DNA from: Antedon mediterranea
Taxonomy: Eukaryota; Animalia; Echinodermata
Assembly (NCBI RefSeq): GCF_964355755.1
Contig: NC_092677.1
Coordinates: forward strand, 5,416,101 to 5,480,100
Length of the DNA: 64,000 nt
Direction of reading: 5' to 3'
Part shown: one piece after another, positions 1-39,816 of the stretch
How positions within the stretch are numbered: position 1 is the stretch's first letter
Layout of the letters: each line of letters opens with the position of its first letter
Program-made: the position numbers and the translations under genes
Notes under the pieces: generated by a model
Database searches by the model: none
What the model was told of the DNA's origin: nothing
The model's input: only the letters and a program-made list of their open reading frames with translations

Positions 1-23
1 CATTATATTCTTTTAATGTTTAG

Positions 24-365
24 ATTTTCAAGCTAATTTGGTGACAGGATTTAACCAGATATCCAAAGAGGGTGATGCTGAAGTGGTGATAACTTGTGAT
101 TATTCACAATTTACTTCTACTGAACCAGATGGCATAAAATGGGATGAGCTAGATGAAGATGGAGTAAATATTAACCCAGGAATTGTGAATGACAAAAACA
201 AAGAAAGTGGACGTTTCAGTTTACACACTGATTCTGCTCATTTTAAAGCTAGCCTGGTGATCTCGCAACCTTTGAGAAATGATTCTCAGCGACGATTTCG
301 ATGTCAGATAACAACAAAAAGTGGCAATATTCAACATTCAAATCCTTCAATTCTAACTGTGTATT
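24..365 (+). CDS. Gene A exon: N-terminal V-type Ig domain
   Basis: tag|AT...T|gtgagt, phase 1-1. VITCDY...IKWDE...GRF...ASLVI...DSQRRFRC...LTVY. Clear paralog of 39027-39356. Confidence 0.9.
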
Positions 366-3300
366 GTGAGTAGATTGTTAAGTTTTGTTCTAATATCAAA
401 ACAGTGATATCCATCGTGCAACTGTACTGTACCTCAATACTGCAAATAGAAATCTTTTTAGCATGTACTCCACTATATTTTAATATAGTTTTAGGAAGGT
501 TCAATGTGGAACTCAATACACAAAATAGAAAAAGAAACAAAAAGTAAGAAACAAAACTATACCAGGTTTCATGATTTTTACACTGAAAATGCATTCTTAT
601 TTATATATTTTTTTCCTTTTGATAATCAGACTTGGATAGACCACTTGTCAATGCCTCAGAGAGTGCGGTCTACGAAGGTCAATCAGTGACCTTTACTTGT
701 AGTAAACCTGATGGTGATCCTATTCCTCACATTGCCTGGTATAAAGATGGACAGACAGTCAACACCAACAACACTTCTAGATATGAGATTGCAAATAACA
801 GTTCAGAGACAGTTCTTAAGATTAAATCTGCTACTGAAGAAGATGGTGGGAGGTATACATGTAAAGCAGAAAATGATCAGTTTAAAGGAGATGATGCTAA
901 AACAAGTGAAGGAAGACAGTTGACTGTAATTGTATATTGTATGTAAACAATAATATTGTTACAAAATAATAAAATTACACATTGCCATACAATGTCACAT
1001 ACTCACCACACATATCAATAAAAATATGTTATCAGGGAAAAAAGACAAATAATTTTTCCCCCACACACAAAAATAGTTTGTCCTGCATTTCAAATCTCTC
1101 AGTTTGGTAACTATGATGTCAGCATGTTAAGATGTGAAATTCATGTACATTTAGGGGGAAAATGGATGTTGTCAAAACAATATAGTTTATAGACTATATC
1201 TGATAACTTAACCAAATACAACTTCTACAAAGAAGCCTTTTGCCTTACTGTGTAAGATCTTCCTTCTTAAATGAAATCTGATTACCAAAAGTTTTATAGC
1301 AATCCACCCCAGAACATGCACAGTGGGCAAGAAGATTAATATAGATTTATAAAATAGTTCTGATAGATGTATTAGTGATGTAATTTTCCCCAAAAACATG
1401 AAAAACGAAGATTAATAAAAAAAGACTTTGAATACTATTTCATAGTTTCAATCAAGTTAATCACTTCCGTTAAAAAAACTAATATTTTCACTTATAAGAC
1501 AAAATACACAGTTAAAATCAACCAAAAATTTGACTATTTTTTGCTTTAAATTACTTTTTTTCAGGTAAATAATCTTTTTTTCAATCTACTTTTTGCTCAA
1601 AGTGTATCATTGAACTATTATGCATATTTAACAAAAACATTTAAGAAAATTATTTGTTCAGGGGGACAATATATCTTTAAATTCAACAAATTTTTCTAAA
1701 AAACTAAAACTAGTTAAGTTAATATAACCACTTGTTGGCGGATAAACAATTAATCCAAACGCACTGTACATGCATGTCACGTTTGTGCAGATAGCCTTGT
1801 CCAAAGTGATGATGAGTTCAAATCTAGTTTACATTGACATTAGCTGATCTTGTCTTTTTTTTTAGATATTTCTTTTACATCTAAAGATGGCATTGCAACA
1901 TGTACAGCAGAGGGCTATCCTAAGCCATTATCAGTATTGATATTGCAAGATGGAGAAGTGGTTAAGAAAGGAGAAAATACAGCAACAATAGAAATTAATG
2001 ATGAGATATGTCAATCAACTTTTACATGTCATGCAGAGAATGGAAAATTTAATGACACAATAACACTAAAGAACTGTAATGCAGGTAAATTTATTCATAC
2101 AGTGTACTGGTTTTATTAGGTGATCCGATCTACCAAGTGGATAACCTATTGTATTTGTAAGCAATCCTTTCTTATTAATTTTTTCACTCTCTTCACACAT
2201 CATTATCTCAACACATCATGTGTGTTTTGAATTTAGTATTCACTTGTTTCATTAGATGAATATAAAGTATTGTAGATCAGATTAATTTACATTTAGCTGA
2301 TATTATCTCTTTTTTAGATATCACTGTTACTTTTACATCTGAAGATGGTATTGCAACCTGTACAGCAGAGGGCCATCCCAAGCCATCATTTGTATTGATA
2401 TTACAAGATGGAGAAGTCGTTAAGAAAGGAGAAAATACAGCAACTATTGAACTTTCTATTAAGATGTGTCAATCACATCTTACATGTTTTGCAGAGAATG
2501 GAAAACTTAATGAAACAACAACACTGGAGAACTGTAACACAGGTAATACTGTATAACAAATTTGTTAAACTTATATTATTAAGTGGTTTAAAATTGAATA
2601 AAATTATCATATCAGGTCTGGAAAAACAAAGCACTTTATAACATGTTGCATGTGAGAGTCGACATACGCAAACTATTGCTACGTAAATATCTTTGATTTT
2701 GAGATTTTTCTGTGTTAAAATAAACCCTTTTTTTTTCACTATAAAGCAAACAATCTGACTGCATGCATCCCATATGTTGTTGCCTTAATTTAAACATAAA
2801 TGGTAAACATTGTTAAATGCTGGTTGTACAATATTACTGTTTAGTTCTCATTATTACTCAGTATGGTATCACAGTTATTTCATGGTGTATAACAATACAG
2901 TACTAACTTTACTGTAGCAATAACAATATTTTTTACATATAATTTCTAAGTAACCTTGTGCTAATACCCATTCACTTTGGCAGAATTTACTGGAATTGAT
3001 TGAGTATTTCTTTAAAATCACTTTAAAACTATTAAACCACATACTACACTACACATACACACTTTTATTGGAAACAAATGAATATAATTGTGTGTAAAAT
3101 TTACATAACATTTTACAAATCTTTTTAAATGCTATCGTGTGGAAATAAAATTGTTATTTTTTTAAACATTATTGGCACATATTTATATTAGTTTTTATAT
3201 ATCCACTGTACAATACAAATCTTTACACAGTGTCAGATGTTATAAACTTACACAATGATATAAAATAAAATTAAGAAACAAAATCATTTAACCAGATTTC

Positions 3301-6300
3301 AATATTAGACATCTAATACAAATTTATTATAAAAAACATTCCTAATACTGTACAAGAGCAATTAGAGAGTTGTAACCTCCACCTAGAGTAAAAAGAAACT
3401 GTGGTTTAAATGTGGTAAAGATCCGTCTTGTAGTTTTGCCTATGTAAAATAATAAATGTCATCCAAAATTGAGATCTTGGTCTGGATTGCCTCCAAAATT
3501 TAATGGAGTCATCCATGACCAATATCTATCTGTGGTTTAAATTTGGTCTTTTATTTACACACACACAGATATTGAAAATATAACCGCCTAGTAGGCGAAG
3601 GTAATAATAATGTTTTCCTGTTGATAATTAGACTTGGATCCACTTCTTGATGCCTCAGCAAGCACTGTCAACGAAGGTCAATCAGTGACCTTTACCTGTA
3701 GTATACCTGGTTATCCTATTCCTTACATTACTTGGTATAAAGATGGACAGACAGTCAACACCGACAACCCTTCTAGATATGAGTTTGTAAATAACAGTAC
3801 AGAGTCAATTCTTAAGATTAAATCAGCTACTGAAGAAGATGGTGGGAGATATACATGTAAAGCAGAAAGTGATCAGTTTAAAGGAAAGGATGCTAAAACA
3901 AGTGAAGGAAAACAGTTGACTGTAATTGAATATGGTATATGTATTATTATTATTGTTTTAAAAAATAATATAAAATTACACATTGTCATACAATGTCAGC
4001 ATCATTCATGATGGATATCTTCCTTGGTATATAAAATCCGATAACCAAATGTTTGAAAATAATAGGATCAGATTTATTTCTTCTGTGTGTGAATCTCTTA
4101 TTAAAACCAAAAACACTTTTTTTCTAAAATGTTTATAACTTTGCTCAACTTACGTCGTGAGGTGTTTTCCCGAATGATCGCACCATTAAAATGGGTATCA
4201 TCAACTACTGTAGCATTCATTTTCCCAACAATCATCCATTTGTAGCAGGCCTACAGTACCACATAGCTTTTTAATTGCATTTTACCATTTACTTTTAATT
4301 TGATTATTTATACATCTTCTATAAAATCTTTTTATTTAACCTCACCCTGACTTTACTTTCTTTTTTTAAGAATGTTAATTAACAGCAAACCACAGTAATT
4401 CTATTAATCCTAATTGGTCAGATAAGATGGGCCCAGCCTAATATTACTATTCACTGACCATAACAAACATTCCTTTCTCAACTAGCATCTTAGCATCTTT
4501 ATCAAATATCGTATATTGTATAATATTATCTATTTATAGAGAATCCTCACTGATTCGCTTGGAATAAATTACATATCTTACTTTATACATTTAGTTTATT
4601 TTACCATTGCGCTAACAATCATATACTAAAGTGGTGACCCTCAACTTTCTTTTACTGAACTTAACTTATTTATTAACTTAATTCATAGAAGTACTGATGA
4701 AGAAGTCAATCTGTGGCGACCATAGAATGGACCGGAGACCTGACTTTCTTCGACTTTTAAATAATAGAAAGTTTTGAATAGTTTGTTAGGATTTTATGTA
4801 AGATTGATAATTTCAAAACTAATAGACATTTTTCAATGAAAATGAAAGTTTACTTCATATCAAAAGTACAGTGATAATACTATACTACTTTCAATTTTTA
4901 ATTAGTTTGAGGAAATGACTTTAATTGAGGTTTATACCTCTTAAAAATAAATTTGTTTCTGCCAACTTACAAATTTAAAACAGCTGCGGATTGATGGCAG
5001 ATAAACACCAAATAAACTAGATGCATGATAGATTTTCTGGTTGTATAATATGCTATTTAATCAAACCTTTTGAAATAATAAAAAAAGAGTAAACACCATA
5101 ATTAACCAAGGTGTAATCAATTGCATGTCCCTATTATTTCAATCAACATTCATTTCTCAATTGAGAACATTTTGAAAAGAAATATTTCTGGCACATTGCT
5201 TTTGAAAAAAAAAAAACAATTCATACACAGGCATATAAGCGTATCTTTATAGAGATAGATTAATTTACTTGACATTAGCTTAACTTATTTTTTTTTTAGA
5301 TATTGCTGTTACTTTTACATCTGACGGTAGTTTAGCAACATGTACATCAGAGGGTTATCTCAAGCTATCATCAGTATTGATATTACAAGATGGAGAAGTG
5401 GTTAAGAAAGGAGAAAATGCAGCTACTATAGAAATAGATGATGAGATATGTCAATCAAATCTTACATGTTACGCAGAGAATGGACATCTTAATAAAACAA
5501 CAACACTAGAGAACTGTAATGCTGGTAAATATACTAAATTTATTATTGGTATTCGCTCAACCAAATGGGTTCTTCTTTCAGTGGGATTCATGGTGTCAAG
5601 TATAGTTTACTCAACATTTGTGTTTACACAATATCTCGAAACGAGAGTAATAGCATTGTTACAACCATTCTCATTTCGAGCTCATGTCTCATGGACGTCG
5701 CTTTCGATGCCCAGCATGTAGAACAAACCGGAAAAGAAATTCATTTTTGCCAGTGGCCATCCAACTCTTAAATTCTTTAACTTTGACTCTTGTTATATTG
5801 TACTGTGTATTGTGTATTGTGATATTTTTGTATATTTTGTAAGATCATTTTAATCCAGACCTTTTTATTTGAATTGCCCCGTGTGGGATGATTAACGAAT
5901 TTTGAATTGAAATTCACTAATATCATCATTTTAAATGATATATGCTTCTACAGGTTATTTCAATGAAAAGTGATTCATTAAACCTTGATGGAGGTTTTAA
6001 ATTGTTTTTTAATCATAAATGTATTTCCATAGAAATGGTGTTACTGTATATCATAGGCCTATATATAATTTATAGGTCTATGGTAATATCAATTCTGATA
6101 ATATATTTTTTATTGATAATTAATAGAAACAAGTACAGTTACACAAGAAGATTCAGGATCACTGTTCATCATCCTGATTGTTGTTGTGATTTTTGTTTGT
6201 CTGTTCATATGGTTACTGATTCTTGTTTGTAAGTAAAATGTACCCCTGAATTATTACTTTCTTAAGGTCACTTCTGATTGTATTGTAAATATTATTCACA

Positions 6301-12300: not shown

Positions 12301-15300
12301 AATTGATTCTCCATGGAGAGGGAACCAACAAGATGGCGGCTGCAATCGACCAATCAGATATGCCCTACGCAGTACGCACTACTACGCCTGTGTTGAGCCT
12401 ATCTGTGTGAGAACGATATGCAACGCAGCACGTTAAGCGTATAAACGCAAACGCATTCTATATGATCCTCGTATACAAAAAATGCTAGATTACCAAGAAA
12501 TTATTAATTCTCATTATTGCGATTAACAATAATTATATTTAATTTTATAAAAACTTCACGGTGCTTTTGCAAGAATATGTGTTGTAATTTATGTGGTCAT
12601 AATGTATTATATTAGATTATTATTTTTTATATTAAATAATGTTTTTGAACACATTTACGGCTGCCATCTTGTTGGTTCCCCTCCTGTTGGAATCACTTTT
12701 TAGTCTGGAGTACGCCCTCTAGTGTTCTATTACATCTCTCTGACTTCAAGTCATTGTTTAAAGGTGTCAATAGTTACTATACATTTCATTTATATTATTA
12801 TATTTTAACACACTAAATGTATTAGCCATACCACTGATTCCATCACAAACACTTGTACCTCCTTCTGCAATTAAAATATTTCCTTTGATAATGTAAAGTA
12901 ATATTGTGTACCTACCAGCTTTGTGAAGAGTGGAGAGCTTTATTACTTATTCTTGAGTGAATGTTATTCTAGTCTGTGATTTTTTGTCATCACTTTTTTT
13001 AACCACTGTTACCATACTTTGTATGGTATCAGAAAATGTTACTGTGTAAATGTGCATAATGAAAGATCATGGAATTTGACTATATTTAATGTTTTAAACA
13101 TAAATTAAATAAATCCGTTCCCTGACTATAATATTTATTTATTTATAGATTTCAAAGGCCATACACAAATAAGTAATAAATATCATATTTTTGTTATAAT
13201 ATAAAATTATTATTACCAACCATTATTACATAAACTGATTTTATATTGATGTTAACTTATGCCAGTAGTATAGATAGATTTATGTGAAAATCCAGGGACA
13301 ATCACATAAGCCCAATTCCAGATGTGGTGTACTAGAAAATTTATCTAATACTATCTCACATTAGATACCAAATTTATTCGAATAAATGTCCATCCACCCA
13401 TCCCACTTTCAATATTAATCTTACTCGGAATTAAGGAGCATAAAAGGCACTTTCTGTGGAAACATAATAAAGTGAGTATAAACACTGGTTGTAAGGCATA
13501 TTTTAATGTCAACATTGTCAAAATGAAGGTTAACAGTAAGTATAATTTCAATTCACGGAACAAAAATGAAAAACTTAAAAAACTGTTAATACTGAAACAT
13601 TATGTCTACTTCGATCAAATCAATTGAAAAAATTAGTTGCCTATTTAAACTTCATATTCATAAAAATCAGACACATAGGACCTTTTAAATTACCAAAATA
13701 CAGTTAAATAGCAATAAAAACAATTCAATGTATGGTGTACAGTAGCCTAGAATTCTATGACGTCGTATGAGTTCGTCAAAGCCTAACCGCAGATCTAACA
13801 AAGTCTGTTACGATAGCCTATCTTGGCAAGTTGAGCTCAGCGATTTTACTTTCGAATTGATTATGTTAGGAAATTAAATTTACATGTCTGGATTCAAATT
13901 ACATTTCCTTAGCAAATGGTAGAATCAGCCTAACAATTTCAAATCCTGTGAGAGCTGATTCTGGCGAGTACAACTGCAGTATAGAGGGCAGTAGACAGCA
14001 GCGTCCAGGTGTCAACAATTTGACTGTTTATTGTAAGTTTTATTTCTGAAAATGAACTTGTATAATTCTATATAAATACAGAAAAGAATCATAAAGATAA
14101 TCTAAAAAATCTATACAGCAAAAATGAAAAAAAAGTTATTTTTTATCCTGTTTTATAAACAACATTTAATATACTTAGATCAATTATACAGTAAATCATG
14201 CTTTTAACAACAATTTTCATATTCTTACTTAGTTTTCTGTCTTTGTAAAATTGAAAAAAACACCATTGACTCAGCAGAACAAGGTATACGGGAGACACTT
14301 TTATGTATGCCAAATGGTCGATTTAGACCTCTAATAATTTTCTTTTTAGATCACAAAAACAAAATAAACATTTTTTTATGGATCTTCATAATAGTTATGA
14401 TACTTTCTTTGGCTTTGTACAATGCATGACAGATTTTATTTTAGATAAGCCAACTTGAATTTGTTCTATAAATATCATTGAATCCATTGTTTGTGTAATA
14501 TTTTAAAACTATATATATATATATATTTATAAGTATTGTACAATCCAATTACTGTGGTATATGACTGTCCGGGAAACAGTGACGGATCCAGGTTATTAAA
14601 TATAGATAGGGCATCATAAAAATTATAATTTGTAAACATTTAAAATACTGAAAGATACTACACAGCTGTAATTTTTATATTTCATTTATAATTTTAAAAT
14701 TGTGTACTTCAAAATATGCAAATTTATATGTTTGAAGGGATTGAGATGGAAAATCCAGAGTACTCAATCAAAGAAGGTATCAGTAATTTTGAAATGAAGT
14801 GCAGATATAGACCATCAGATATGCCATTAACAGGTTACAAGTGGAAGAAGATTAAGGAAGATGGCACAACAGACATTGAGGATTGTTCTGAAGATGGCAG
14901 ATTTGAAGTAACAAAACAAAATAGCATTCTGTCTTTGAAGATAAAAAATGTTATACTTGGTGATTCTGGCAAATATCAATGTGAAGTGAAGCCAGTTGAT
15001 GGAGAAAAGAAGCTGGAAGATACTACACAGCTAACAGTTAAGAAACGTAATATTTTTACAGTATTTCATCTACATTTATTTTGAGAATTACTAAACAGTT
15101 CTATGCTAGCTATTAGAAACTAAACTAAACTAAACTACAATAAAAATCCAGTTATAACAAAATAACTTATAAATCCTGTAACCTACAGAGAAACAAATCA
15201 AATTAGAGCATGGTTCAGAATTTTTGAGCATTTTAAAATTGTTGTTTGCTGCTCACATTTGGTATGCCTAGAATAAAAATGTAGCATAAAGTTAGTAATG

Positions 15301-18300
15301 ATCACCTAAAAACTAATAATTCGCTGAGAATTATTCCCATCGTCGATGTACGATTTTGTACACAGCCTAAGAATGAAAGAAAATCATACGTAGGGCCTAC
15401 AAATTTTAGGAAGATACAACAATATAGTATAGCCTATATACATCATCCGTTAAATGTCTATTGTTACAAATGGAAGTGAATTGTAGTAATCCATTACCAC
15501 GTAGCTTTTCTTTTACTTGAAATATGTGCCTTTCAACCTATATCAGGGCCGTATGCAGGGGGGGGGGGGGGGGGTGCGTACGCACAACCCCCCACCCCAA
15601 ATTGCAAAAGGTCCACATTTTATAGGGTGTTAAAATAAATAAGTACTCAATATTATGAAAATGGTCCAAAATATATTAAAAAAATAAAATCCTGCGTACG
15701 GCCTTGTATATCGACTCACCTCTCAATGATGTACAGTTTCAGCTTTTATAATCTTGAATGACGCCCTCTTCCATATTTGATAGCCTTTTGATCCAGAGAT
15801 AATTTTTTTATTATAATAAGTCATAATTCAGTAAATATTTAGTTTAAAACTTTACATATAGCCCATGACCATCTCCGTAGCAAAATGGATGTTGGGTGTA
15901 AAATTCAGACGAATCGGATGTCGCACGGCAGCGTACATAGCGGATACACTTTTTGTGTTTGCCTTTTATAGATAGATACCGTAGATATATTCTATATGAG
16001 ACATAATAGGCAAAGATCAGCACTATAAAGCGTTTGCATCAGGTTATAGATATGGCATATATCGACTGCACTCAAATTCAATACTAATTGTAGTGTAACA
16101 AAGATAATGCTACATTTTTTTTATTCATTGACATTTTTGGTGATAAAATAAAATTGTTCTGTTAGTATTAGTAATATCTATTTATATTTTTCATTTATTT
16201 GCAACCAGATGATGTGCAAGTACTGTTTTGAGGTGCGATAAAATTGTTTTGTTATAAATTGTTTATGATATTTGTAGGTCCTATTACTGCCATTATCGGT
16301 GAACATGGGGTTAGATTGCCGTTCAGCTTTAATGTTGATGATGGTTCTGCTGAATTATCCAATATCACATTGTATAAAAAGCCTGTTGAAGGTGATAAAA
16401 AGGAGAAGCTGGCATCATTGCAGTCACCTGATCCAAAATCACGCTATCAATGTGGATTTGAGGATAAGAACAATGCGTACCTTGAGATCAGAAATGTTGT
16501 GCCTGGAGATGCAGGAGAATACATATGTGAACAGGAAGTTGAAGGAAGACAGAAAAACAGTCAATCTGCAACTTTAATAATTAAAGGTACAGTGATATCT
16601 AAATAGATTTCAGTGCTGGAATTAAATACTTAATTTTTGTTAAAAATACAAAAAAATCTGTTATAGTGGAGTCTGTTTTTGTTCATTAAGTTTTGTATAT
16701 AGGTTGCCCACCATCTACGAATTCAATTTTTGATGGGCGCCAAGCAAAATTACCCCTTGGGTCACCTAATTTGCATTTTCGTTTAAACACTCTATATCTC
16801 TGAAACTACTGGTCATAGAGAGTTGATGTTCAGAACATTCCTATTTACTCTAATGAAGAATTTTTGAAAAAAAATGACCGGAAGTACCAGTTTTAACCTT
16901 TGACCCATATTTTAAGGCATTGCCATATCTCAGTAAATGTTGTCACAGACAGGTTATTTTGGTGTCAAATTATTCAAAATATATATGTTACTATTTAGTT
17001 TAATGAAAAATGTCATCCAAAAATGCCCGGAAGTACGTAGTTTTGCATTTGACCTTTGACCTGTTTTTTTCAGGCAGATTGCCATATCTCATTATTGGGT
17101 TGGCGTGGAAGTTTTAGTGTCAGTTTGTTCAGAATATACAGTATATGTTTCTATTCTGCTTAATAGAAGATTTATCAAAAAAATGTCAGGAAGTACAGTT
17201 ACTGTATTGCCTGTTACATACATAAAATTCTAAATTTGCTCAAGTTAACTGTATATTTATATTATTTTGCAATCCATTTTTGAGCACTTGTCGAAGATGG
17301 CTACTTGCATGTGCAATTGAACGAGGTATACTGAATGAAGTTGAATAGATTGTCCTACCGTATTTGTAGTGAGTCTAGAGTAACGCAAATGAGAGAAAAT
17401 TGTATAGACAAAATATACCCAATCTCATTCTCATCTAATCGAGTACTTAAATGAAGTCTTCTAGCAATAATGTGTACTGATGAAATCCATTCAAGTTTTG
17501 TTTTGGAAAGTTAGTGTTTCCATCACTTGTGTTTGTTTGGTTGTTACATTCAGGGTAATTGTCCTATATTGCATTGCTTCGCTGAGTATCAGATGTTTTT
17601 GACATCCTTGTACATAAGAAGCTTTCAATGTTTAAATATTCCGACAAACAATAAACACTGATTTAAAGTCTAGGAATGCAATGTATAGTTCAGAATGTGT
17701 CTTTCTACTATGCTTGTTTACCATCTAATATTTAATTTATTTTTAGATTTGTTGAACGACAGTGCAGTGTTGTCTGTTGAAGGAGGAGAAGCTATGATTC
17801 GTTTTAATATGCCACAATTAGCATTACCACAGCAAATAGAAATTGTTTTTGACAAATCTGAATCTAAAGAATGGAAACAAGTTGCTGATAATGGTTCAAC
17901 AAGTTTAGGCAGATATCAACTAAAATATAGTAACACAAATCACACTGGTTTTCTTGAAATTTCTAACGTTCAACCTTCTGATGCTGGTGAATATCGTTGC
18001 TGTGTTACAAAGGGGAAAGAAACTTATACAGCAACATGTGAACTACAGGTTATTGAAGGCAGTAAGTATCTTAGAATAGTCACATTTAATCAATAATTTT
18101 TTTTTCAACTAGCAGTATAAACAGTTTCCAGCCAAAAGTCATGTAATTTTAAAATTACAATTTAGTCATGAAAAACATTGGTTTGTTCAAGGTCAGTTAA
18201 AAATTGACGTTTAGACCAATGATATAAGAACTAACTATTATTATTGTTTTATAGATAGTGTTGAAGTTACATACAAATTAATATCTAGCCATAAATTGTA

Positions 18301-21300
18301 CTTTTATCGATGGTAGTTTTTTAAAAATGCTTTGTTTTTTGGTTATTCGCAATTGTTAGCAACATAATACATGTATATTGTTATTATAAATTGACAATGT
18401 ATCAAATCAAACATAAAATGATTTATTTATCTGCTTATCCGTTTGCAATAAAAATTGATATTTAAATCCCATTTATTAACTATAACTTAAGATTTACAGG
18501 GCCTAGCCATCATGAGGCAGACGATCAGGCACTTGCCTTGTCTTAAATTTCAATTTTCACCACCCACCTCAATTTCCCAGCAGAGATCGTCATATTTTAT
18601 ATTAATACTTAAATTTTAAAGCATCTTTGCCTCGTCTGTTTTTAACCTCTCACTACGGTCTTGTTTGGTTTGACTTTGGCTATCAAACAACAGGACACTG
18701 AGCTTGTCTTTCCAAGATAGGCTATTGTAACAGACTTTGATCTGCGGTTAGGCTTCATCGAATTCATACAAATCCCTCGAATTCTAGGCTGTACACCATA
18801 TACGTCAAATTATTTTTATTGCTATTTAATTGTGTTTTGGTACTTAAGGTCCCATGTGTTTAATTTTTAAAATTTAATTTGATGGAATTATCAGTTTTAT
18901 AAATTGTTCATTGTTCATGCTGTTGATTGAATTTATTGTGTACTGTTAACCTTCATTTTGACAATGTTCATATTAATTCAAGGCAAAATGATGTGTATAC
19001 TCACTAATGGCGTTCACATCGAACTATGGCTAGTTAATTTAACTAGATTATCTGTATGATCTCGCCATAATTTGGATGTGAACGCTCAATTATGTCCGGA
19101 TGATGGTTTTTTTCTGGAAAATTATTGCTGCTTGAAGGATAGCCAGTTATTTTATGACTTAGGGTAATCCAATTAACAACCCAGCAGGTGGCCTTCAGCC
19201 TCATTTGCACCAATGAGATTGAAGAATTTTTGAACCCAATTGACCATTATTATGGTCATTTTAATATTTAACATTTGAATTGCAAAGAATATGCTTATTC
19301 TTCTTCATTGTGTACCCCATAAAATGTCCTAAAAATTAAATGAACTATATCTGACGAGGACAGAGGTCAATAGAAGATAAGAATAGAGTAGAATACAAAA
19401 GACAGAAAGTAAAATGACCAATTGTTTGTAATCAAAAGTTAAAAGTAAACAACATACAGGATAAATAAAAAAAAGAGATGATTTTATACATAAAATAGTA
19501 TTTAAAATCTCCAATACCAGGTTTTTATGAAATTGAATTAACTAGACATAATTGTACCAAAGTACGGGATTTGTCAAGGTTAGTCCAATTAGTAGAAAAT
19601 TGTTAAATCCACTTCTTCTAGACATAGTTCCATGTGAACCCCACTGTAACTGTATTGTTATGTTTTTTTGTAGCTATGACACTGGATGATTGTATTGTGA
19701 AACTAGGAGATAAAGCTGTTTTAACTTGTAAGTATGGACCTGAGACGCTGGGGAAAGTCCCTGTTAATTGGTATAAGAAGACTGTTGATGGAAACAAGAT
19801 GATATTTACTTCTGATGAATCACAACAGAAGAAGACAAAAAAAGTGTCTGAAAGATACAAAGCAACTTATAATGATAATGAAACAAGTTTGGAGTTTGAG
19901 AAAGTGTCAATGATTGATGCTGGAGAGTACAGATGTGAATTTAAGGCCACAAAAGGAATCATTGGCAAATCAGCACAATTGTGTGTATACTGTAAGTACA
20001 TTTTAAAATATCTATTTTTCCATGAAACTAAAGTTGAGTGTATTTAAATAATTAGTATGAACTAAAGCATGTGATCTAAATGCTCATTTTACCCTAAAGC
20101 ACCGGAAGTCATTTTAAAGTAATTTAATTTTGATTACTTATGGTGTGAAACATTTAGTAATATTTAATGTTTTTTTTTTTTTTTTCAATAGTTGACGTGT
20201 TTACTGCTGAACCAGGTAACACATATAGGTAATGTAAATGTTTTATTTGGATCTCATAATCTGAAACATAAATTGTGAAACAAGCAGCATCAAATCATCA
20301 CAATTTTTGTTCTTTTGTTTTGCCATTTATACATATTTGTATGTTCTTGAATATCAGTTATTTTGTAAATTCATCTCATTTTTAATTAAGTTTTTGTGTA
20401 TATTTTTTTCTCTTATTTCACAGACGTCCTACTGTAGTCTTTACAAAGACTCATATTCTTGTATTTTGTGTGCAAAACAACTCAAATGTAACAATGAAGA
20501 AAAGAGAATTGAATGTAAAGAGTGAGACTGAATGGGAAAAACCAATACAGATTTTACATGAAAAGAATACAAGGTATTGGTATAATATTCCCTGAGAAGA
20601 TATGACAATAAATAATTCAAATTAAAAATTAAATTGAATATATTCCATTGCCCAGTCAATTGTGTGTATAGTACAATATCAAAATTTAAATATTTTTTAA
20701 AAGAGAGAAAACAATTACAGATATTATCTAAACTTGGTAAAACTGATCTTTAGATTGCTTGATCAATTTATTTTTTAAAATAAATTTTGTTTACAATAAC
20801 CGTTGAATTTGTTCTGTTTATTATCTATTTACTCTACAGCTTACATAATCCAGTACCAATTGTGACAAAAACAGGAGGACAGGTGATTCTAATATGCCTT
20901 GCACAAGATAATAACACACAAAAGAGAAGGATAATGAAGATGGATAGTAAGGATAATGGAAAGACTTGGATAAAATCACCATTTAACAGATATTCTGGGG
21001 ATGAAATAGACATTCTAAGTAATTATAAATTAGATTTGTATTATGTTGTTTAAAGTTGTATATAGTCATGCGTCATGACGTGCATATATTCTTTTTGATG
21101 TACAGTATGCCATCCTATGACCTGATGCATATATGCTTATACAGTAGTAATGAACTTGTAGAGAATATACACAGTATACACTATATCAATATAGTGTAGT
21201 ATACTGTAGGTGAATTTACAGGACCCAAATATGTTCTTTTTTCTTTTTTTGGTATGATGACCTTATACCTAGTTTATTGCCTAGTGTGTAAACATTATTG

Positions 21301-28225: not shown

Positions 28226-28424
28226 GCTTTCCTAGATCAGTCTGTTAGGATAGCCTATCTTGGCAAGTCGAGCTCAGCGTCCTGTTTGATTGCCTTGGTA
28301 TAACAATATGTTTACTCAATTAGTATTATTGCTGTATATTAGTTTAATGTTTGATAATTTTCAAATTTTGTAGTGTCCCTACAGCAAGCTTAATGGTATA
28401 GATGAAAGTGTTACCTTCTTAAAA

Positions 28425-32665: not shown

Positions 32666-33413
32666 CGGAAACGTTAAAGTGCCATTCACTTGGCGACTTG
32701 TCGAGATAATTTATCTTGTCAAGTCGACATAAATATGACTATTATGTCGACATAGTAACCATTATATTTCTACATTGCGAGATAGTTTATCTTGCCAAGT
32801 TGATTCCCTAATAAATACATGTCGACTAGACGAGATAGATTAACTTGCCAAGTTGACTTTACTTCGACGCTTGAAGCGTCCAAGTGCCATCCACTTACCG
32901 ACTTGTCGAGATAATTTATCTTGTCAAGTCGACATAAATATGGCTATTATGTCGACATAATAATCATTATATGTCGTCATGGCGAGATACATGATCTTGC
33001 CAAGTTGACTTCACCAAAATTGCATGTCGACATGACAAGTAGTGTCGATATTCTATACAAAATGTCCACATGTGTCTATTTTAACGCATACTAACGACAT
33101 GTGAGGCCGACGACGACCGGCCGAATAGGAAAGTCCAAATAATTTAGAATTACCAAGATAAATATCATCGAATTCCGTCTGTGGATGGCACTTGGACGCT
33201 TCAAGCGTCGAAGTACAAGTAAAGTCAACTTGGCAAGTTAATCTCTCGTCTAGTCGACATGTATTTATTAGGGAATCAACTTGACAAGATAAACTATCTC
33301 GCAATGTAGACATATAATGGTTACTATGTCGACATAATAGTCATATTTGTGTCGACTTGACAAGATAAATTATCTCGACAAGTCGCCAAGTGAATGGTAC
33401 TTTAACGCTTCCG
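32666..33413. mobile_element. Foldback MITE with ~230-bp TIRs and TA target duplication
   Basis: TA-cggaaacgttaaagtgccattcacttggcgacttgtcgag ... ctcgacaagtcgccaagtgaatggtactttaacgcttccg-TA. Contains an internal ~200-bp direct repeat of the arm. Confidence 0.85.
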
Positions 33414-34220
33414 TAGATATAGGAAAATAGGACTACATAAATTAAAAGCGTTTAAAAAAACGAAAAAAAAATTATATAAGAGTCTCTTAAAATGGTCAAA
33501 TACTTTGCAGAATTCTTCTAAACATAACCAGTAAGACTTTTTTTTAGTAGATTGGTTTTTGGTGGCATGTAAGATCAATATAATTTTTTCTCGCATCTGG
33601 CATGTTGCAGGTACGTACACTAGCACAAATAAGTAGTAGCTACAACATAAGCACCTCATTAATTTTATCAAGCATTGTCTGGTTTTGTTTTACGGTATTA
33701 CAGTAGGCCTATTCTAAATGTTTATGAGTTTATACAGTACAAATAACAAGTACACACTTTCACAAACGAATTTAATTACTACCTGTAAATAATAACATGA
33801 GTTTTAATGAGTAGTTAATTACTTTCAATACAACAACTAATGACAAAAAGATAGATTGACGTTTCAATATTTCCACAATATTATAACATACATGATAAAA
33901 CACAAATGTTAAACTAGTTTGTTATAAATAAAATTGCTTATAAATACAATGAAAAGTTGTTCAGTCATGTGGTGAGAGGGGGGTGGGGGAATCATATAAG
34001 TCGGAAAGACAAGATATAAAATTAAATACGAAAAAGAAAATTAATATTACATAAACTAATAATATATATATATATATAAAGCAAAGCTTACAATTTATAT
34101 TTAATCACTTTATCCTAGAAAGTAAATAGTTCTTGTATACTAATTTAAATTGTGAAGTTTCTGTTTCTAAACCATTATGAAACTATTTTAAAGTTCAATT
34201 TAAAAAAACGTAAAACGTAA

Positions 34221-35730
34221 TCTAATAAATTTACGTAAGGGCAAAATTCGGTAAATCGCGCGTTATTTCTAGAATGTTTACTCGATGGTATATAAAGTTG
34301 GTTAGAATCTCGGTACTGATTTTAACCACCTGATGTAACCCTGTTTACTAATTAAATTTAGTTAGATAATTAGTCATTGACAATAAAAACGAATTTAGGT
34401 TCAACTATTTGCCCCAAATAGGGGTGTTTTCCGATCGTGGTATACACTGTCTAATGGATGTCCTCTTGAAAAATACCTGCACACAATAATACGAGGATGC
34501 TTCGCATTTTCCTATCTCCTCCTACGATAATTGTTTTTAATAGCTGAAAACCGGTTGAACAGCTCGAGTAGCCTACAGTATCATAATGTTGAAGACAGGC
34601 CGATTTTCTTAAAAAAATACTATTTTGATAGATTTAATATTCGTTTATACAAATGTATTGATTTGCGATGAATGGAACATTTCAATCTCTCACTTACTAC
34701 TTCCGTCTGAGTGTATTGCATTTTGGGTAATGATGACGTTTTGCTCGACCACCCATAGATTTAACCGGTTATTTCGGAGCACAAATTGAGCAGAAACGCG
34801 GTCTTGTTGTTGTTATCTATTTTTAATCTATTTTAAAATAACCGGTTAAATTGCGTTATGCAGCAGAAACAGACCCTCAGACTCCCAGTTTGTTTGGTAA
34901 ATTTATGTGCCCTTGGTTTAACACAAGTAGGTAAATTTATGGGCCCTTGGAGAATAAACTAATGAGATATAGTATTGCAATACTTTTGACAATATTGTAA
35001 ATACTTTACGTATTAACCATTTTTGGTCGCCATTGGAATCAAAATTAACTTACTGTGAATGTGGTTACTATTATAAACACATATACAAAGAACATCTATT
35101 ACTACTGTGACTGTGGGTAGGCTCTACTGCTGGATATATAAACACATAATATACAAATAAAAACTTTATTACTGACAGTTGCTTCTCAACGTTTGTATTG
35201 ATTAATAAAAAAATATAAACGTCGTAGTGGTGTATCGTTACATGTACTTTACTATTTCAATCGACTATAACAGGGACAGTTTTAAAAAGGTATTACATCG
35301 TAAATGTTTTACTGTGTTTAGTGGTATATTATTGATAGGCCTATAAAACATTTAAAACAATATTTCGTTACTGGATAAAGAATATATTAAAAAAATGTTC
35401 TTCCCATCCTCTTCCCCATCCCTCAACTCTAATGTTATATACAAAACACAAATTGGGTTTGTTTAAATGAGTTCAAATACAAAATTTGAACTCATTTTTA
35501 AGACAAGTTTCTCCTTCGAAAGTAGGTCTAATTCCCAGGGTGCTAATTTTAGTTGACTACATTAATCATTGTGTCTATTTATTCGTTTCTGAAAACGACA
35601 ATGTATTAAAAGTCCTGAGGTACGTACATTTGAAATCGCCAGTTTTTTTACGCTGAAATTACTGTGTATTCGAGAACCATCTGTGGACACGACCTAGATG
35701 GTACGCGAGCGAAGCGAGTGTACCATCTAG
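34221..35730 (+). mobile_element. Non-autonomous Helitron-like element, copy 2 (complete ends)
   Basis: A|TC start. The 3' end is the hairpin ctagatggtacgcgagcgaagcgagtgtaccatCTAG|T, with no TSD. Confidence 0.75.
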
Positions 35731-36719
35731 TAAACGTAATTACAACAATCAACGTAACCATACATCAATTATAGACGTAAACAACATTATTGGTGTGGTG
35801 TGGCAGCGGCTGATCCATAACACCGTTATAGTGGGCATAGCCTAATCGGCACCGGTTATCTGCCTTTAACTGCATTTAATATGTAGGCCTATGTTATAAG
35901 AGTTTAGTGCACAAGTTTTGTTTGAACCATACCATGGAGAAACTAGTAACTAATGCTTCCTCAAATTCGTTCATCACTTGCCCAGAAAAATATTAGTTAT
36001 CAAGGCCCAAACTATGAAACAATTTACCATGATTTAAGTATGATCTCATTAACAAAATGTTTACACTTAAAGTTAAACATTATTTTACTATCGAAATATT
36101 GATCTTAGGTTATTTTAACTATTCATCAGTTCTATTGCAATTCAGTTACATCTTTTATTTTATGTGTTAATTATTATTATTTTGGTTTTATATATATGCT
36201 ATATTCATTTAATAACTATCTAGCGTCTGTTAAATAATTACTTTGTATTACATTTACAAGGCCAAATGTAGACAAGCGAAAGTTTTTTCTTTGGCCATTT
36301 TGTCAAGTAAAGTTGAGTCATTTAAGTATTTATTATTATTATTTTACATTTGACAATAACGAGAGATATTTAATTGTGAGAATATTTTTTATGCGTTGAA
36401 AGACTTGACTGTATTCAACAAGGCGGACTTTCAACTATTGAAATAATCAAATTCTCGCCATTGAATTCAACGAATACAAAACATTAAATTGTTTTATAAA
36501 GTAAAATAGGCTACATTGCCACTTCGTGTTTATACTGTACAAACCATCAGAAGATGGAAATGTTTTATATCAATATCTTCCTAATTCTTGGAATTATAAT
36601 TATCAAAAATTGTCTACGTCAAAATTGGATATCTTTTTTGTGACCAACTAACTTAATTTTATCTTTGTTCACTGATATTAAATTATGTAACTTAAACATA
36701 CTTTATTTAGGATAAACGT

Positions 36720-39700
36720 TTAGTCGTATAACTGTTCACAATAATGTGGTTCTGCAACCTTTTCTTTCTGTGATGTAATACAATCACGAGGCTCTTCGTA
36801 AATGACCTCAGAACTTGCCGACATCAGACCTTGAAGATTTTGACATTCGATTTCAATTTTTTCTCGTTTCTACAAAAACAATACAACTATTGATTGTTAT
36901 CGCTGAGTTTGAAAAAATTGTAAATTTGTAAAATTGAAAGTTACTATTTGGGATTGCCGAATGGGTTGATATGAATTAGGCCCACCAGCATGATTTAGTT
37001 TTGAAATACCTTTAATTTTATAATGATTAGGCCTACTTCTTTATTAAACGTCATCTGTGTCGACATCAGAGTGTTTGCCAAAACGTGCAGACCTTGGTAT
37101 AGGACCTACTAATTTTGACGTTTATCAACCCGCGACCATTTATAGTTAACATCAATAGTTTCTTTAGTTTATTAAAAAATACTTACCAGTGATTTTGCAC
37201 TGGATGTACCTTTACGTGACTTCACGATATCATCTCCTTTAAACCCTGTATTCATCTCATTGTAAACGCCGGAATGAAATGTTATTGCTTGATATTGAAG
37301 ATTTTGAAATGTTGACTGGATTTCTCTTATTCGTCTTTGCTAAATAAACAGTTTCAATGGTGAAATCCAATGAAAATAATAATACAATTATTTTCAACAT
37401 AACCGTTATAATAAAGGCAGTTTTTGAATTGCAAGGTGATGGCTACTTACATAAATATAACGTGATGTTAAACATGTAGGAATAGAACCGACAAGTAATG
37501 CAATAATAATAGCAATAGCTGTAACTATTGGAAACGAATCACCTAGAAAAGTAGATTTAAACTACATTAATACTAAAAAGTGTAAAATGTACTCAATGGC
37601 GTTCAAATTCAAAACATAGGACTGAAAACGTTAATTCCTGTAGTAGGCTACCAGGTGTGTAGGCCTACGGGAAATGCTTTAACGTCACGTGCCTGACTAT
37701 ATCATGATCTTCAAATGTGTCTTCCATGTCAATGTGTTAATATTATAGCATATAGGCATTTTGGTTACTATTCTTGTAACCACTACATAATGTGTAACCA
37801 TACCATAAGAGCATAGGAGAGTATATCTCATAGGCCTACTCTTGCAGACACTAAGCTGCTTGATAAATACATTATGGTAACATCAATCAATCAATCGTTC
37901 GATTTATATAGCACCATTCCAACAGTCATTGCTCATGGCGCTGCAAAAAACCCCGAAAATGTGAGTTTTGAGTAGTGACTTTAAACATGGAACTGAACCG
38001 ACAAATAATGCGATAATAACATGCCTACCTTTCACAGTACCTGTTTCTGCTTTAGGCCTACAGTTCTTTAGTGTTGTTGTGTCATTAAGTTTTCCATTCT
38101 CTGCATAACATATTATATTTGATTGGCATATCGTTTTATTTGTCCCTAAAGTTGCTGTATTTTCTCCTTTCTTAACCACTTCTCCATCTTGTAATATCAC
38201 TACTGATGATGGCCTGGGATAGCCCTCTGCTGTGCATGTTGCAAAACAATATTCAGGTTTGAATGTTACGATGATATCTAGAAAATGAGAGAAGCTTCAG
38301 AATATATATTTTTAAATTGTAGGCCTATAGGCTAAAGGCAAAACAATTAAGCTTTTTATAACGAAGATGATTAAACAAGATAAAAAATAATCATCATGTA
38401 TATTGCATCAAAAACATTTTGACTGCTCTTTTACTTAAGTATCTGAAGGATACACACAATGTACCACAATTAGACATTTAAAAAGGCAATTTCTACATAC
38501 AATTTATGTTCAACTGTTTTCCGGCACTAATTTCAGCATCATCTCCTTTAAACTGATCACTCTCTGCTTTACATGTATATATACCACTGTCTTTCACGGT
38601 GGCTGCTTCAATCTTAAGAACATTGCCGGTGGTATTTATCTTCTGTTCATCTTTATACCAAGTGATGTAAGGAGTTGGATCTCCATCATGATTACTACAA
38701 GTAAATGTGACTGTTTCTCCTTCGTAGATAGTGTTTGCTGAGGCATGAAGAAGTGGTTTATCCAAAACTGAAGTATAAAAAAACAACAAAAATACTATTA
38801 CCGTAGTACGGTATTCAACGGGAAATTGAACAATTTAGGTCTACGTGTGTTTTACCATAATTTTTGGGAGTTGACAACATTTTTAAAAATATAACAATTT
38901 AATTAATAGAAATAATTCGATTAATGTTCAATGACGTCCTTAGAACACATCTTTCTATAGGCCTATATGTCAAGAGGTTTCTGAAGTGAAAATAATGTTT
39001 AATTTAGAATTTTACTTTTTACTTACAATATACAGTTAAGATAGATGGACCTGATAACTTATTTGACCCGTTTGCCGTTTGTATTTGACATCTAAATATT
39101 CTTTTTGAATCGTGTCTCAAAGGATGTAAGATCATCAGGCTAGCTTTACCAGGCGCAGTGTGTAACTTAAAACGTCCATTTTCCATCTTTTTATCATTCA
39201 CAATTCCCGGGTTAATATTTACTCCATTTTCATTCAGTTCATCCCATTGTATTACATCAGGCGTGGATGTAAATTGTGAATAATCACAAGTTATCACCAC
39301 TTCAACATCACCTTCTTTAGACGTCTGGTTAAATGTCGTCACCAACTGACAATGTGCTTTAATATAATACATTATGAACACATCTATTAGGAGAATTATT
39401 ACAATTAAACCTGCTTTTTAAACCACTGATATTTAGCTGTGTTGATAAAATTCAAGTCACGCGTACTTTATAGTCTACAGATCTAGGCCTAAATTTTGAG
39501 TGTCAATGTTACATAAATATCAGACTGTCGTTGCCTTTTAAACTAACCACAATGGTCATGCAAATTAAACGAATAATAATATTCCTAACCTATTTGGTTA
39601 TGTTTATGGTTATTTAGCTACTATTAGTTTTACACAATCCTACTGACTGGTCATTAGAAAGATAATTCAAATAATCCGGCATGAAAAGTGCACTTACTGT

Positions 39701-39816
39701 TTAGTGTTTAGCTAATTAAACATTTAACTATATAATATACATCACCAATTCAATTAATTCTTACCGAGTGAAGATTGTAAACATATAATAAATAAAAGCC
39801 TCATCTTCAAACACAT
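36720..39816 (-). CDS. Gene C: complete type I IgSF receptor (signal - V - I-set - mini-Ig - TM - Tyr-motif tail), about 430 aa
   Basis: Exons 39816-39765, 39356-39027, 38767-38501, 38277-38029, 37542-37451, 37339-37187, 36869-36720 (1293 nt, all phases match). Signal MCLKMRLLFIICLQSSLAHC; TM FPIVTAIAIIIALLVGSIPTCL; tail contains LQYQAI, VYNEM, VIYEEP, HYCEQLYD*. Confidence 0.88.

Follow-up and report, generated by a model that had tools for sequence, protein, structure and literature searches.

Two neighboring genes with like ectodomains and unlike ends raise the question of whether they form a dedicated receptor pair or belong to something larger. Paired receptors with similar ligand-binding domains and different outputs typify immune and allorecognition clusters, such as vertebrate LILR/SIRP and Hydractinia Alr. 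In the 64,000-nucleotide stretch of Antedon mediterranea DNA analyzed here (the window), an initial annotation had described genes A and C as such receptors, with a shared V-I-mini-Ig ectodomain and completely different modules after the transmembrane (TM) helix, and had proposed that they belong to a diversified cluster, possibly as a sensor/signaling pair.

Two convergent genes with common ectodomain exons

Genes A (+) and C (−) face each other tail to tail, with stops at 28225 and 36720, respectively (Table 1). The ITCDYSQF/WDEL/GVNINPG motifs lie at 89-161 (+) in gene A and 39294-39225 (−) in gene C, ILQDGEVV at 1940, 2398, and 5380 (+) and at 38197 (−), and AESDQFKG at 3862 (+) and 38567 (−). 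In self-BLASTN the V exons are 77% identical over 338 nt (E 2e-66), the I exons 69-70%, and the mini-Ig exons 81-87%; the corresponding protein identities are 74%, 61-66%, and 65-67%, and the real score of the V proteins was reached by 0/500 shuffles. The homology of the convergent ectodomain exons thus stands, as does the claim that the TM and downstream exons are unrelated: TM plus tail of the two genes are no more alike than shuffled sequences (p 0.82; p 0.10 when the comparison is limited to the TM exons), and the two TM exons have different phases. Two descriptions needed amendment. The exon types are shared, but gene A reads V-I-m-m-I-m (m, mini-Ig) and not a single V-I-m, and the post-TM modules are wholly different, but that of gene A is far longer than a tail and reaches 28225. 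The first exon of gene A had also been started at 24, which is an alternative AG; the in-frame acceptor used is at 33.

Table 1. Features of genes A and C in window coordinates.
Gene	Feature	Position	Strand	Evidence or remark
A	V-set Ig exon	33..365	+	Pfam V-set E 7e-4
A	I-set Ig exon 1	630..938	+	Pfam I-set E 6e-18
A	Mini-Ig exon 1, ~73 aa, four Cys	1866..2084	+	Pfam Ig_3 E 1e-3
A	Mini-Ig exon 2	2318..2542	+	Self-BLASTN, Pfam search
A	I-set Ig exon 2	3632..3934	+	Internal duplicate of I-set exon 1, 87% DNA identity with flanks
A	Mini-Ig exon 3	5300..5524	+	Self-BLASTN similarity; no Pfam match
A	TM exon, phase 1/1, helix uncharged	6127..6228	+	Kyte-Doolittle 3.68
A	Split-Ig N-half (strands A'-B-C) + Cys-rich segment	9450..9710	+	Kyte-Doolittle 1.63; predicted palmitoylated membrane anchor
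A	Five linker exons, boundaries tentative	9959-9986, 10547-10625, 11445-11519, 11817-11832, 13149-13172	+	
A	Split-Ig C-half (strands E-F-G)	13913..14032	+	Pfam V-set positions 71-101
A	Post-TM Ig2, both canonical Cys present	14738..15046	+	Pfam search, Cys pattern
A	Post-TM Ig3, without B-strand Cys	16278..16586	+	Pfam search, Cys pattern
A	Post-TM Ig4, without B-strand Cys	17747..18061	+	Pfam search, Cys pattern
A	Post-TM Ig5	19674..19991	+	Pfam search
A	Propeller, seven exons	20192-20228, 20424-20573, 20840-21018, 21898-21969, 26105-26202, 26765-26896, 27929-28225 (with stop)	+	
C	Start codon + signal-peptide exon	39765..39816	−	
C	V-set Ig exon	39027..39356	−	Homology to gene A V exon
C	I-set Ig exon, 12-aa deletion relative to paralogues	38501..38767	−	Pfam search
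C	Mini-Ig exon	38041..38277	−	Terminal extension also in A-type paralogues XP_071958850/852
C	TM exon, phase 1/0	37451..37542	−	Kyte-Doolittle 2.47
C	Two cytoplasmic exons, 100 aa	37339-37187, 36869-36720 (with stop)	−	

Gene A is very probably one gene from the V exon through the propeller. Its predicted frame comprises 25 exons (33-28225; 1,511 codons, ~1,510 aa) with 0 internal stops and 24/24 GT-AG introns, the signal-peptide exon lying outside the window, before base 1. Splice signals and database gene models, the latter liable to fuse neighbors, underlie the exon joins, and the reading frame used for the linker micro-exons is offset from that of the paralogues. Several models do start after the TM helix (P0002, P0006, P0023, and P0024, the last being three accessions of a single sequence), as would be expected if gene A were short-tailed, the Ig-propeller exons formed a separate gene behind it, and the long models were fusion artifacts. 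Against such a division, four A. mediterranea RefSeq models (1,166-1,454 aa) share the whole architecture colinearly from the V exon to the last propeller exon, two loci have isoform sets covering TM to Ig2, and a split Ig straddles the supposed gene boundary. Gene C has an intact 426-aa frame, 6/6 GT-AG introns, and an AATAAA poly(A) signal at 36707; a broken WD40 fragment lies immediately downstream. Its tail carries five Tyr, one ITIM-consensus motif, and one YxxM, which occur in 20% and 10% of shuffles, respectively, and has no match among the 21 paralogue proteins compared. The orphan tail and the neighboring fragment could be taken to mark gene C as a non-expressed by-product of shuffling, but its frame, signal peptide, introns, and poly(A) signal, together with a V-domain dN/dS of 0.23 between A and C, speak against this. 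We consider both the separate gene and the by-product improbable.

Between A and C, the V domain shows purifying selection. Positive selection between the two genes was not seen (dN/dS 0.23 for V, 0.35 pooled), and the large synonymous divergence of the V exon (dS 0.75) indicates an old separation of the two with no recent homogenization.

A crinoid family and its tails

Genes A and C are supported as two members of a larger crinoid family. The initial annotation had suggested counting paralogues in the flanking genome and had weighed its reading against a two-member family orthologous to a known adhesion molecule. An A/C-type V domain is present in about a dozen A. mediterranea models, 11/12 of them on one 28.6 Mb contig, and at least three post-TM types besides that of gene C occur on the same ectodomain, so that a diversified cluster with several outputs is borne out. 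In a word-based search of 970 candidates, from which distant homology could escape, the V-domain matches were 12/12 crinoid, with no non-crinoid protein, no Alr protein, and no known adhesion orthologue among them; the Ig2 protein search likewise gave no non-crinoid match. All close homologues are from crinoids, namely Antedon mediterranea and Anneissia. Across paralogues the V domain is more variable than the I domain (median identity 64% vs 78%).

The paralogue tails in A. mediterranea include a TRADD-N/DED-like end, a short tail, and a two-ITIM isoform. The first of these, in XP_071958835, is an Atlas lead at 0.85 that Pfam and PDB sequence searches left unconfirmed. The V domain of this paralogue groups with A-type V domains (support 99/99), and an AU test rejects a single clade for the 8 A-type V domains versus 4 others (p 8.6e-6), a discordance that relies on correctly joined database models. 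Because the V-domain tree does not follow tail type, the tails have likely been exchanged by exon shuffling on a common ectodomain.

Vertebrate paired receptors (SIRP, LILR, and Siglec pairs) also combine similar, clustered ectodomains with different signaling ends, and their ectodomain trees are likewise discordant with tail type. It is tempting to extend the parallel to A and C as a co-regulated activating/inhibitory pair on the same ligand: they are convergent neighbors, their V domains are 74% identical and fall within one supported clade of 7 (95/95), and gene C has its ITIM-consensus and YxxM motifs. However, a motif scan of A, C, P0009, and P0013 found no ITAM, and the TM cores of A and C are uncharged, so they are not a classical activating/inhibitory pair. 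The gene C motifs have the chance levels given above, V dS is 0.75, and each gene has nearer relatives elsewhere in the family; for the V domain of gene A, a different short-tailed paralogue is closer than C. The proposed sensor/signaling pair of LILR/SIRP type is accordingly one we find very hard to sustain. A further difference from the vertebrate systems is that the crinoid outputs appear to be globular domains, namely an Ig array with a pseudo-sialidase or a TRADD-N/DED-like end, and not motif versus adaptor.

The post-membrane part of gene A

The propeller of gene A has a predicted NEU2-5-type sialidase fold and is almost certainly catalytically dead, as judged from residue conservation and homology. 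Pfam BNR_2 is found in the propellers of 6/7 paralogues, and the predicted model of the P0002 propeller (pLDDT 85) matches human NEU2 in Foldseek (2f0z E 2e-15, TM-target 0.75). In keeping with the NEU2/3/4/5 GH33 group (human NEU2 structures 1snt and 2f0z) as described in part in PMC3431349, the modeled fold has six blades, and the gene A propeller retains a YRRP form of the FRIP-like YRxP motif, one strict Asp box, and further degenerate Asp boxes. Unlike those enzymes, it forms the end of a fusion with a TM receptor and an Ig array and has 5/6 catalytic residues replaced. With the six residues defined as in the available text of PMC3431349 (Arg triad, Tyr/Glu nucleophile pair, and Asp acid/base), only R21 is kept (1/6), and 2/3 of the carboxylate-binding Arg are lost, whereas full-length intact control sialidases have 6/6. 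E218, R237, R304, and Y334 are kept in 0/11 crinoid propellers of the gene A type; the substitutions are conserved, with E218 replaced by His in 11/11. In a quick tree the dead propellers form one clade adjoining intact Anneissia sialidases (SH-aLRT 100 and 96). Among intact proteins, crinoid sialidase-3/4-like proteins are nearest to them, and the closest solved relative of these intact parents is cytosolic NEU2. The fusion of Ig and dead propeller is also present in Anneissia (XP_033114275).

On either side of the Cys-rich segment lie pieces that fit complementary stretches of the family's Ig profile, in 12/12 halves (score reached by ≤5/500 shuffles), although AlphaFold does not fold this split Ig (pLDDT <50). 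The Cys-rich segment has a hydropathy of 1.6-2.0 (Kyte-Doolittle) and is followed by basic residues in most paralogues compared. Exon 9450-9710 has no Pfam match to CYSTM, and its resemblance to CYSTM/CYSPD is one of composition only. XP_071958852 is without this segment and retains the remainder of the architecture, and XP_071958881 has an alternative 81-aa insert after it with two ITIM-consensus motifs (shuffle p 0.009). Gene A Ig3 is 42-52% identical to four Ig domains of the single-TM paralogue XP_071958835, which lie between a basic stop-transfer stretch and the TRADD-N/DED-like end.

From these features we infer that the post-TM part of gene A is probably cytosolic. The B-strand Cys is missing in 19/19 Ig3/Ig4 rows (2 with a gap there), whereas both Cys are present in 42/42 pattern-matched ectodomain domains, a contrast that favors the cytosolic side. 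So do the DED-like end after the Ig3 homologues, the ITIM insert after the Cys-rich segment, the complementary half-Igs around that segment, the basic residues after it, and the cytosolic NEU2 relative. Counting against it are the Cys pairs retained in Ig2 and Ig5 (24/25 rows), three N-glycosylation sequons conserved in 8/8, 7/8, and 8/8 Antedon propellers, and the hydropathy of the Cys-rich segment together with the non-folding of the split Ig. A two-pass protein would accommodate the Cys pairs, the sequons, and the hydropathy, with the Cys-rich segment as a second membrane helix and the Ig array and dead sialidase outward or luminal, where they would form an arm, tethered next to the V-I-mini ectodomain, that binds glycans or acts as a decoy. 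It would also suit the sequon excess of the post-TM part (14 observed vs 7.6 expected in gene A; observed/expected 1.39 for propeller, 1.77 for Ig3, and 1.37 for Ig5, against 1.64 for the ectodomain) and the mostly extracellular location of sialic acid substrates given in the available text of PMC3431349. Yet it would split one conserved Ig across the membrane, one half on each side, and place the ITIMs of XP_071958881 outside the cell, and it fits poorly with the single-TM XP_071958835, with the architecture kept by XP_071958852, and with the lost carboxylate-binding Arg. Moreover, CYSTM segments, likewise Cys-rich, had been annotated as TM before they were found to be palmitoylated and not TM, according to parts of PMC10840359. 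We regard the two-pass arrangement as unlikely.

Function and relation to known receptors

Taken jointly, the evidence inclines us, with some reserve, toward a crinoid family with shuffled tails in which gene A encodes a single-pass receptor with a cytosolic Ig array and dead propeller. Its V domain would bind a ligand at the surface of a cell, self or non-self, or of a microbe, and in doing so cluster the receptor, with the output set by the tail. In A-type members a palmitoylated Cys-rich segment may pin the split Ig to the inner leaflet, and the Ig array and dead propeller may serve as a non-enzymatic scaffold (e.g., to the cytoskeleton) or as bait for intracellular ligands. The gene C tail would recruit SH2 proteins upon Tyr phosphorylation, and the TRADD-N/DED-like tail could lead to death or inflammatory signaling.

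A putative role of the family in immunity or self/non-self recognition is reasonably probable. Adhesion, development, regeneration, or gamete recognition, with the long tail as a cytoskeletal anchor and tail variety as tissue specialization, is a less convincing and rather unlikely account. The modeled ectodomain does resemble the Ig tandems of NCAM, nectin-like, and CEACAM proteins in fold, RefSeq names include JAM-like, NCAM2-like, and neogenin-like, and selection between A and C is purifying. However, the structural matches are to Ig tandems in general, at 14-21% identity, and the V and Ig2 searches, with crinoid matches only, found no orthologue outside crinoids and no orthology to a conserved bilaterian adhesion gene such as JAM, nectin, or NCAM. 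The lineage-limited expansion, the greater variability of V than of I, and the ITIM-bearing and TRADD-N/DED-like tails also sit poorly with adhesion.

For an immune or self/non-self role, Hydractinia Alr offers a close description: clustered genes for single-pass IgSF proteins in which V-set domains are followed by I-set domains, tails diverge more than ectodomains do, some members bear ITIMs, and alternative splicing alters the tail, as set out in parts of PMC9546547, all with counterparts in the crinoid family. The third domain differs, being Fn3-like in Alr and a four-Cys mini-Ig here, for which Pfam gave no Fn3 match and weak Ig_2/Ig_3 matches; the mini-Ig of a paralogue is a beta-sandwich in its predicted model. 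Alr tails also bear motifs without folded Ig or enzyme-fold modules in the available text of PMC9546547, which reports allorecognition for Alr1/2. An echinoderm precedent for a cytosolic Ig as output comes from sea cucumber AjNLR-new and AjNLRC4, with a membrane immune receptor whose intracellular Ig is reported to bind actin and Fidgetin in phagocytosis (PMC13133943; also PMC8699970); compared by description, it differs in being NACHT-based, with one Ig region, no V-I-mini ectodomain, and no sialidase fold. Shuffling has likewise produced lineage-specific receptors and adaptors in the invertebrate TRADD-N/DED expansions, among them TM proteins of oysters that combine DED and TRADD-N (PMC8195603, in part), and one crinoid paralogue has a similar end. 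Genes A and C themselves lack a death-fold domain, and in the crinoid family the constant part is the Ig ectodomain and the commonest variable part the pseudo-sialidase.

A bolder proposal, which we offer tentatively, is a self/non-self receptor complex in which exon shuffling plugged one Ig ectodomain into folded cytosolic modules, most commonly a titin-like Ig array with a domesticated dead sialidase. The propeller, its active-site face rebuilt alike in two crinoid families, would be an integrated intracellular scaffold or bait, and DED-like and ITIM sisters would compete for the same ligands. If true, this would give animals a counterpart to integrated-domain immune receptors, built around an IgSF chassis at the cell surface.

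The literature searched yielded no description of the A-type architecture, in which a surface Ig receptor is combined with a split Ig that is probably lipid-anchored, an Ig array, and a dead sialidase. Either topology would be unusual: a type I receptor would carry Ig arrays in the cytosol, or a receptor would have two arms and hold a pseudo-sialidase outside the cell. Conservation between Antedon and Anneissia covers at least the Ig and propeller. The A-type design, likely used for recognition signaling, would represent a pseudoenzyme recruited as a receptor output, and the A/C family provides a concrete candidate for variable cell-surface recognition with testable V-domain variation.

Two receptor genes with a common ectodomain

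The predicted tail of gene A is the striking part of this locus and goes beyond the framing of the initial annotation, which had read genes A and C as paired receptors of an immune or allorecognition cluster. The window is AT-rich DNA of animal type (GC 27-39%), and both genes were modeled from splice signals. The window begins at the V exon of gene A, whose exons run in the order V, I, mini-Ig, mini-Ig, I, mini-Ig, and TM. The predicted gene has 25 exons, GT-AG borders at 24/24 introns, 1,511 codons, and zero internal stops; the micro-exons of its linker are tentative. Two micro-exons encode paralogue-like peptides one base off the frame of the window model, which suggests compensated frameshifts or a missed micro-exon. 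The I and mini-Ig exons are duplicated together with intron flanks (81-87% DNA identity), and these duplicates could give a longer ectodomain or alternative splicing.

Gene C has 7 exons, 6/6 introns with GT-AG borders, an open frame of 426 aa, and an AATAAA 13 bases beyond its stop. Its tail matched none of the 21 family proteins compared, and its tail exons gave no Pfam match. The TM exon of gene C scored similarly against the TM exons of four unrelated tails (p 0.006-0.04); the score therefore reflects hydrophobicity only, and homology to these exons was rejected. Between the stops of A and C lies the 3' end of a WD40-repeat gene with weak WD40 matches, likely a duplicated pseudogene fragment. 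Splicing of C onto these exons was rejected because C has its own stop and poly(A) signal; the frameshift in the first WD40 exon and the lack of WD40 repeats above cutoff in V-bearing models also oppose this join.

Every motif that the initial annotation had quoted as homologous between the two ectodomains was found in place and on the expected strand. Self-BLASTN aligned the V exons of A and C at 77% (E 2e-66), the I exons at 69-70%, and the mini-Ig exons at 81-87%. The TM and tail of C resemble those of A only at chance level (shuffle p 0.82 and 0.75), which bears out the claim that the TM and downstream exons are unrelated. The V exons differ with dN 0.17 and dS 0.75 (ratio 0.23, 95% 0.13-0.40), so both are constrained and the A-C pair is old. 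For the mini-Ig exons dN/dS was 0.54-0.78 with intervals that include 1, and this pairwise test saw no positive selection between A and C.

Among the matches listed for sequencing runs compared with the window (four on 1-20000, two on 20001-40000), none was an exon-to-exon GT-AG joint, a result that says nothing on expression. Run X5 behaves like low-depth DNA. In run X1 the summed contig depth, which is no copy number and serves as a hint only, was ~970-990 at the V exon, ~5,900 at the exon of Ig2 (Ig2 to Ig5 being the four whole Ig domains after the TM), ~1,400 at the last propeller exon, and ~70 in the bin of the C tail, with unique contigs at ~20-30. The excess at Ig2 hints that Ig2 copies far outnumber receptor genes.

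Several other elements occupy the window. The THAP region is likely a transposon relic, and both large inverted repeats are likely non-autonomous DNA transposons. Three decayed reading frames gave no Pfam match at E 0.01; by eye, we take them to resemble endonuclease/reverse-transcriptase pieces of non-LTR retrotransposons.

Features of the window, in window positions
Feature	Position	Strand	Description
Gene A	33 to 28225	+	Splice-signal model; post-TM order: half Ig, Cys-rich segment, small-exon linker, other half Ig, four whole V-like Ig domains, propeller in seven exons
I-exon duplicates, gene A	605-997; 3607-3998		With intron flanks
Mini-Ig exon duplicates, gene A	1825-2093; 2274-2567; 5253-5545		With intron flanks
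Micro-exons, gene A	11817-11832; 13149-13172	+	Off the model frame
Ig2 exon, gene A	14738-15046	+	~6x the V-exon summed contig depth in X1; only 10 protein clusters found by Ig2
Decayed reading frame	8233-9213	-	
Decayed reading frame	22924-24048		
Decayed reading frame	40418-41264	-	
WD40-repeat gene, 3' end	30687-32152	-	Four exons; one-base frameshift in first, 24-nt tandem duplication in third
Palindromic element	32659-33420		Arms internally repeated (92% over 272 nt)
Gene C	39816-36720	-	Splice-signal model; signal peptide, V, I, mini-Ig, TM, 100-aa tail with five Tyr
THAP domain	44518-44826	+	Pfam E 5e-11; in-frame stop near start
Open frame, 399 aa	44666-45862	-	No Pfam match; possible resemblance to vertnin-like, transposon-derived proteins
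Open frame, 141 aa	47486-47908	-	No Pfam match; possible resemblance to vertnin-like, transposon-derived proteins
Inverted repeat	49339-51392 / 54376-56420		2,074 nt at 96.6%; nested repeats
Inverted repeat	58860-59690 / 60718-61554		857 nt at 90%; nested repeats

A sialidase-like propeller without most of its catalytic residues

The last propeller exon recovered 7 proteins among 51 candidates, all from Antedon mediterranea and 76-82% identical. Pfam BNR_2 was recognized in 6/7 of these first-found paralogues (E 3e-12 to 9e-20). A profile-free search of 1.84 billion representatives returned 147 matches: after Antedon came two Anneissia proteins at 40-42%, one of which (XP_033114275) carries an Ig domain ahead of its propeller, followed by intact sialidase-3/4-like proteins of Anneissia together with other sialidases. 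A structural model of the paralogue P0002 (three Ig domains plus propeller, 66-row alignment) reached pLDDT 85 and matched human NEU2 with E 2e-15 and TM-target 0.72-0.80.

The six essential sialidase residues, taken from PMC3431349, were mapped through a hemichordate sialidase aligned to NEU2. The propeller of window gene A keeps only R21. E218, R237, R304, and Y334 are absent from 11/11 crinoid propeller rows, with E218 always replaced by His, and the D46 loop is deleted in all 9 Antedon rows; the full-length intact control sialidases have all six. As judged from these residues, the gene A propeller is a sialidase fold outside the active enzyme family. A quick tree of 36 rows unites the 9 dead propellers in a single clade (100) that adjoins the intact Anneissia enzymes (96) inside an animal group (100), and the dead propeller likely derives from the crinoid's own NEU5-type gene.

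Paralogues and their tails

The V alignment found 12 proteins among 970 candidates, 11 from Antedon and 1 from Anneissia japonica, and Ig2 found 10 among 213, all from Antedon. By these relatives the window is probably crinoid, from Antedon or a close ally. In four RefSeq models (XP_071958824, 844, 647, and 852) the window exons align in order from the V domain through the propeller. The diversified cluster that had been proposed holds up: a V domain is present in ~12 models with differing tails, 11/12 on a single 28.6 Mb contig, and we infer physical clustering from this shared contig and near-consecutive accessions. The tails include the A-type (split Ig, Ig array, and dead propeller, as in gene A), a short charged tail (XP_071958873), a DED-like tail, and an A-type isoform (XP_071958881) with an 81-aa insert bearing two ITIM-consensus motifs (p 0.009, shuffles). 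The tail of XP_071958835 (P0010) has four Ig domains and then an end for which the closest clusters in the Atlas are TRADD-like_N and DED (score 0.85, a lead only); at residues ~970-1285 it reads as TRADD-N-like plus tandem DED-like. The DED-like end had 0 matches in a PDB sequence search, and a Pfam search gave no confirmation either. As a lead only, XP_071958835 may be a death receptor whose ectodomain is made of Ig domains. Two paralogues, XP_071958852 and XP_071957667 (P0008 and P0166), carry about nine tandem 8-aa Ser/Pro/Thr repeats in a loop of an Ig3 domain.

A V-domain tree (15 rows) puts the DED-tail gene together with A-type genes (99/99) and makes a short-tail gene the nearest relative of window A (89/93); one clade of 7 (95/95) contains both A and C. 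An AU test on 12 rows, with the near-duplicates P0004 and P0012 and the long Anneissia row omitted, rejected (p 8.6e-6) any tree in which all 8 A-type V domains form a single clade; as a result on tail shuffling, this presumes correctly joined database models. The I-domain tree gave no resolution. The V domain is more variable than the I domain across 12 rows each (median identity 64% vs 78%).

Placement of the A-type tail and possible roles

The post-TM part of A-type receptors is probably cytosolic. The B-strand Cys is missing in 19/19 Ig3/Ig4 rows (2 gapped), whereas both Cys are kept in 42/42 pattern-matched ectodomain domains. A single-TM paralogue has, after its basic stop-transfer stretch and before its DED-like end, Ig domains to which Ig3 is 42-52% identical, and the ITIM-bearing insert is positioned after the Cys-rich segment. 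The half-Ig pieces flanking that segment align to positions 5-39 and 68-105 of the profile; for 12/12 halves, 0-5 of 500 shuffles reached the score. The segment is absent from one model. CYSTM Cys-rich segments are described as palmitoylated rather than membrane-spanning (PMC10840359), and a sea cucumber receptor is reported to bind actin through an Ig domain inside the cell (PMC13133943). Against a cytosolic placement, three sequons are conserved across the Antedon propellers, the first and third in 8/8 and the second in 7/8. Sequon density is an ambiguous guide to topology: the ratios of observed to expected sequons, from paralogues that are not independent, are 1.39 for the propeller, 1.77 for Ig3, 1.37 for Ig5, 1.06 for Ig4, and 0.73 for Ig2, with 1.64 for the ectodomain; window A has 14 post-TM sequons against 7.6 expected. 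Both Cys are retained in 24/25 rows of Ig2 and Ig5, the hydropathy of the Cys-rich stretch reaches 1.6-2.0, and an AlphaFold single-chain model folds V, I, and mini-Ig and leaves the split Ig unfolded. The paralogue P0024 keeps the sequons with neither signal peptide nor TM, in a model that may be incomplete.

Vertebrate paired receptors, as usually defined, work alike, but A and C have neither an ITAM nor a charged TM; the proposal of a dedicated sensor/signalling pair is thus wrong or unproven. The Hydractinia Alr cluster (PMC9546547) also works alike, but the Fn3-like third domain is missing here, and no Alr protein was matched among the 970 candidates of the V-domain search. Tested for membership, the family falls outside both the Alr family and the vertebrate paired receptors. 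Marine invertebrates are known to combine constant and variable parts in architectures that include TRADD-N and DED (PMC8195603). Among the papers listed by a search of largely open-access literature on immunoglobulin genes of crinoids, inactive sialidases joined to Ig, receptors with intracellular Ig, and paired receptors of invertebrates, none described this family or an Ig receptor-pseudo-sialidase fusion; domain-architecture tables, for example those of PMC8195603, could list these proteins.

The common ectodomain, the unrelated tails, the dead enzyme fold, and the several tail types in a relative can be read at the level of sequence. In the mechanism that we propose, the V domain would bind a surface ligand and the receptor would then cluster. 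The A-type tail may act as a lipid-anchored, non-enzymatic scaffold or bait, the C tail would be phosphorylated and recruit SH2 proteins, and a DED-like tail could lead to death or inflammatory signalling, with family members perhaps competing for ligands. A putative role in recognition or immunity is suggested by the expansion of the family, by its variable V domains, and by tails of the ITIM and DED-like kinds.
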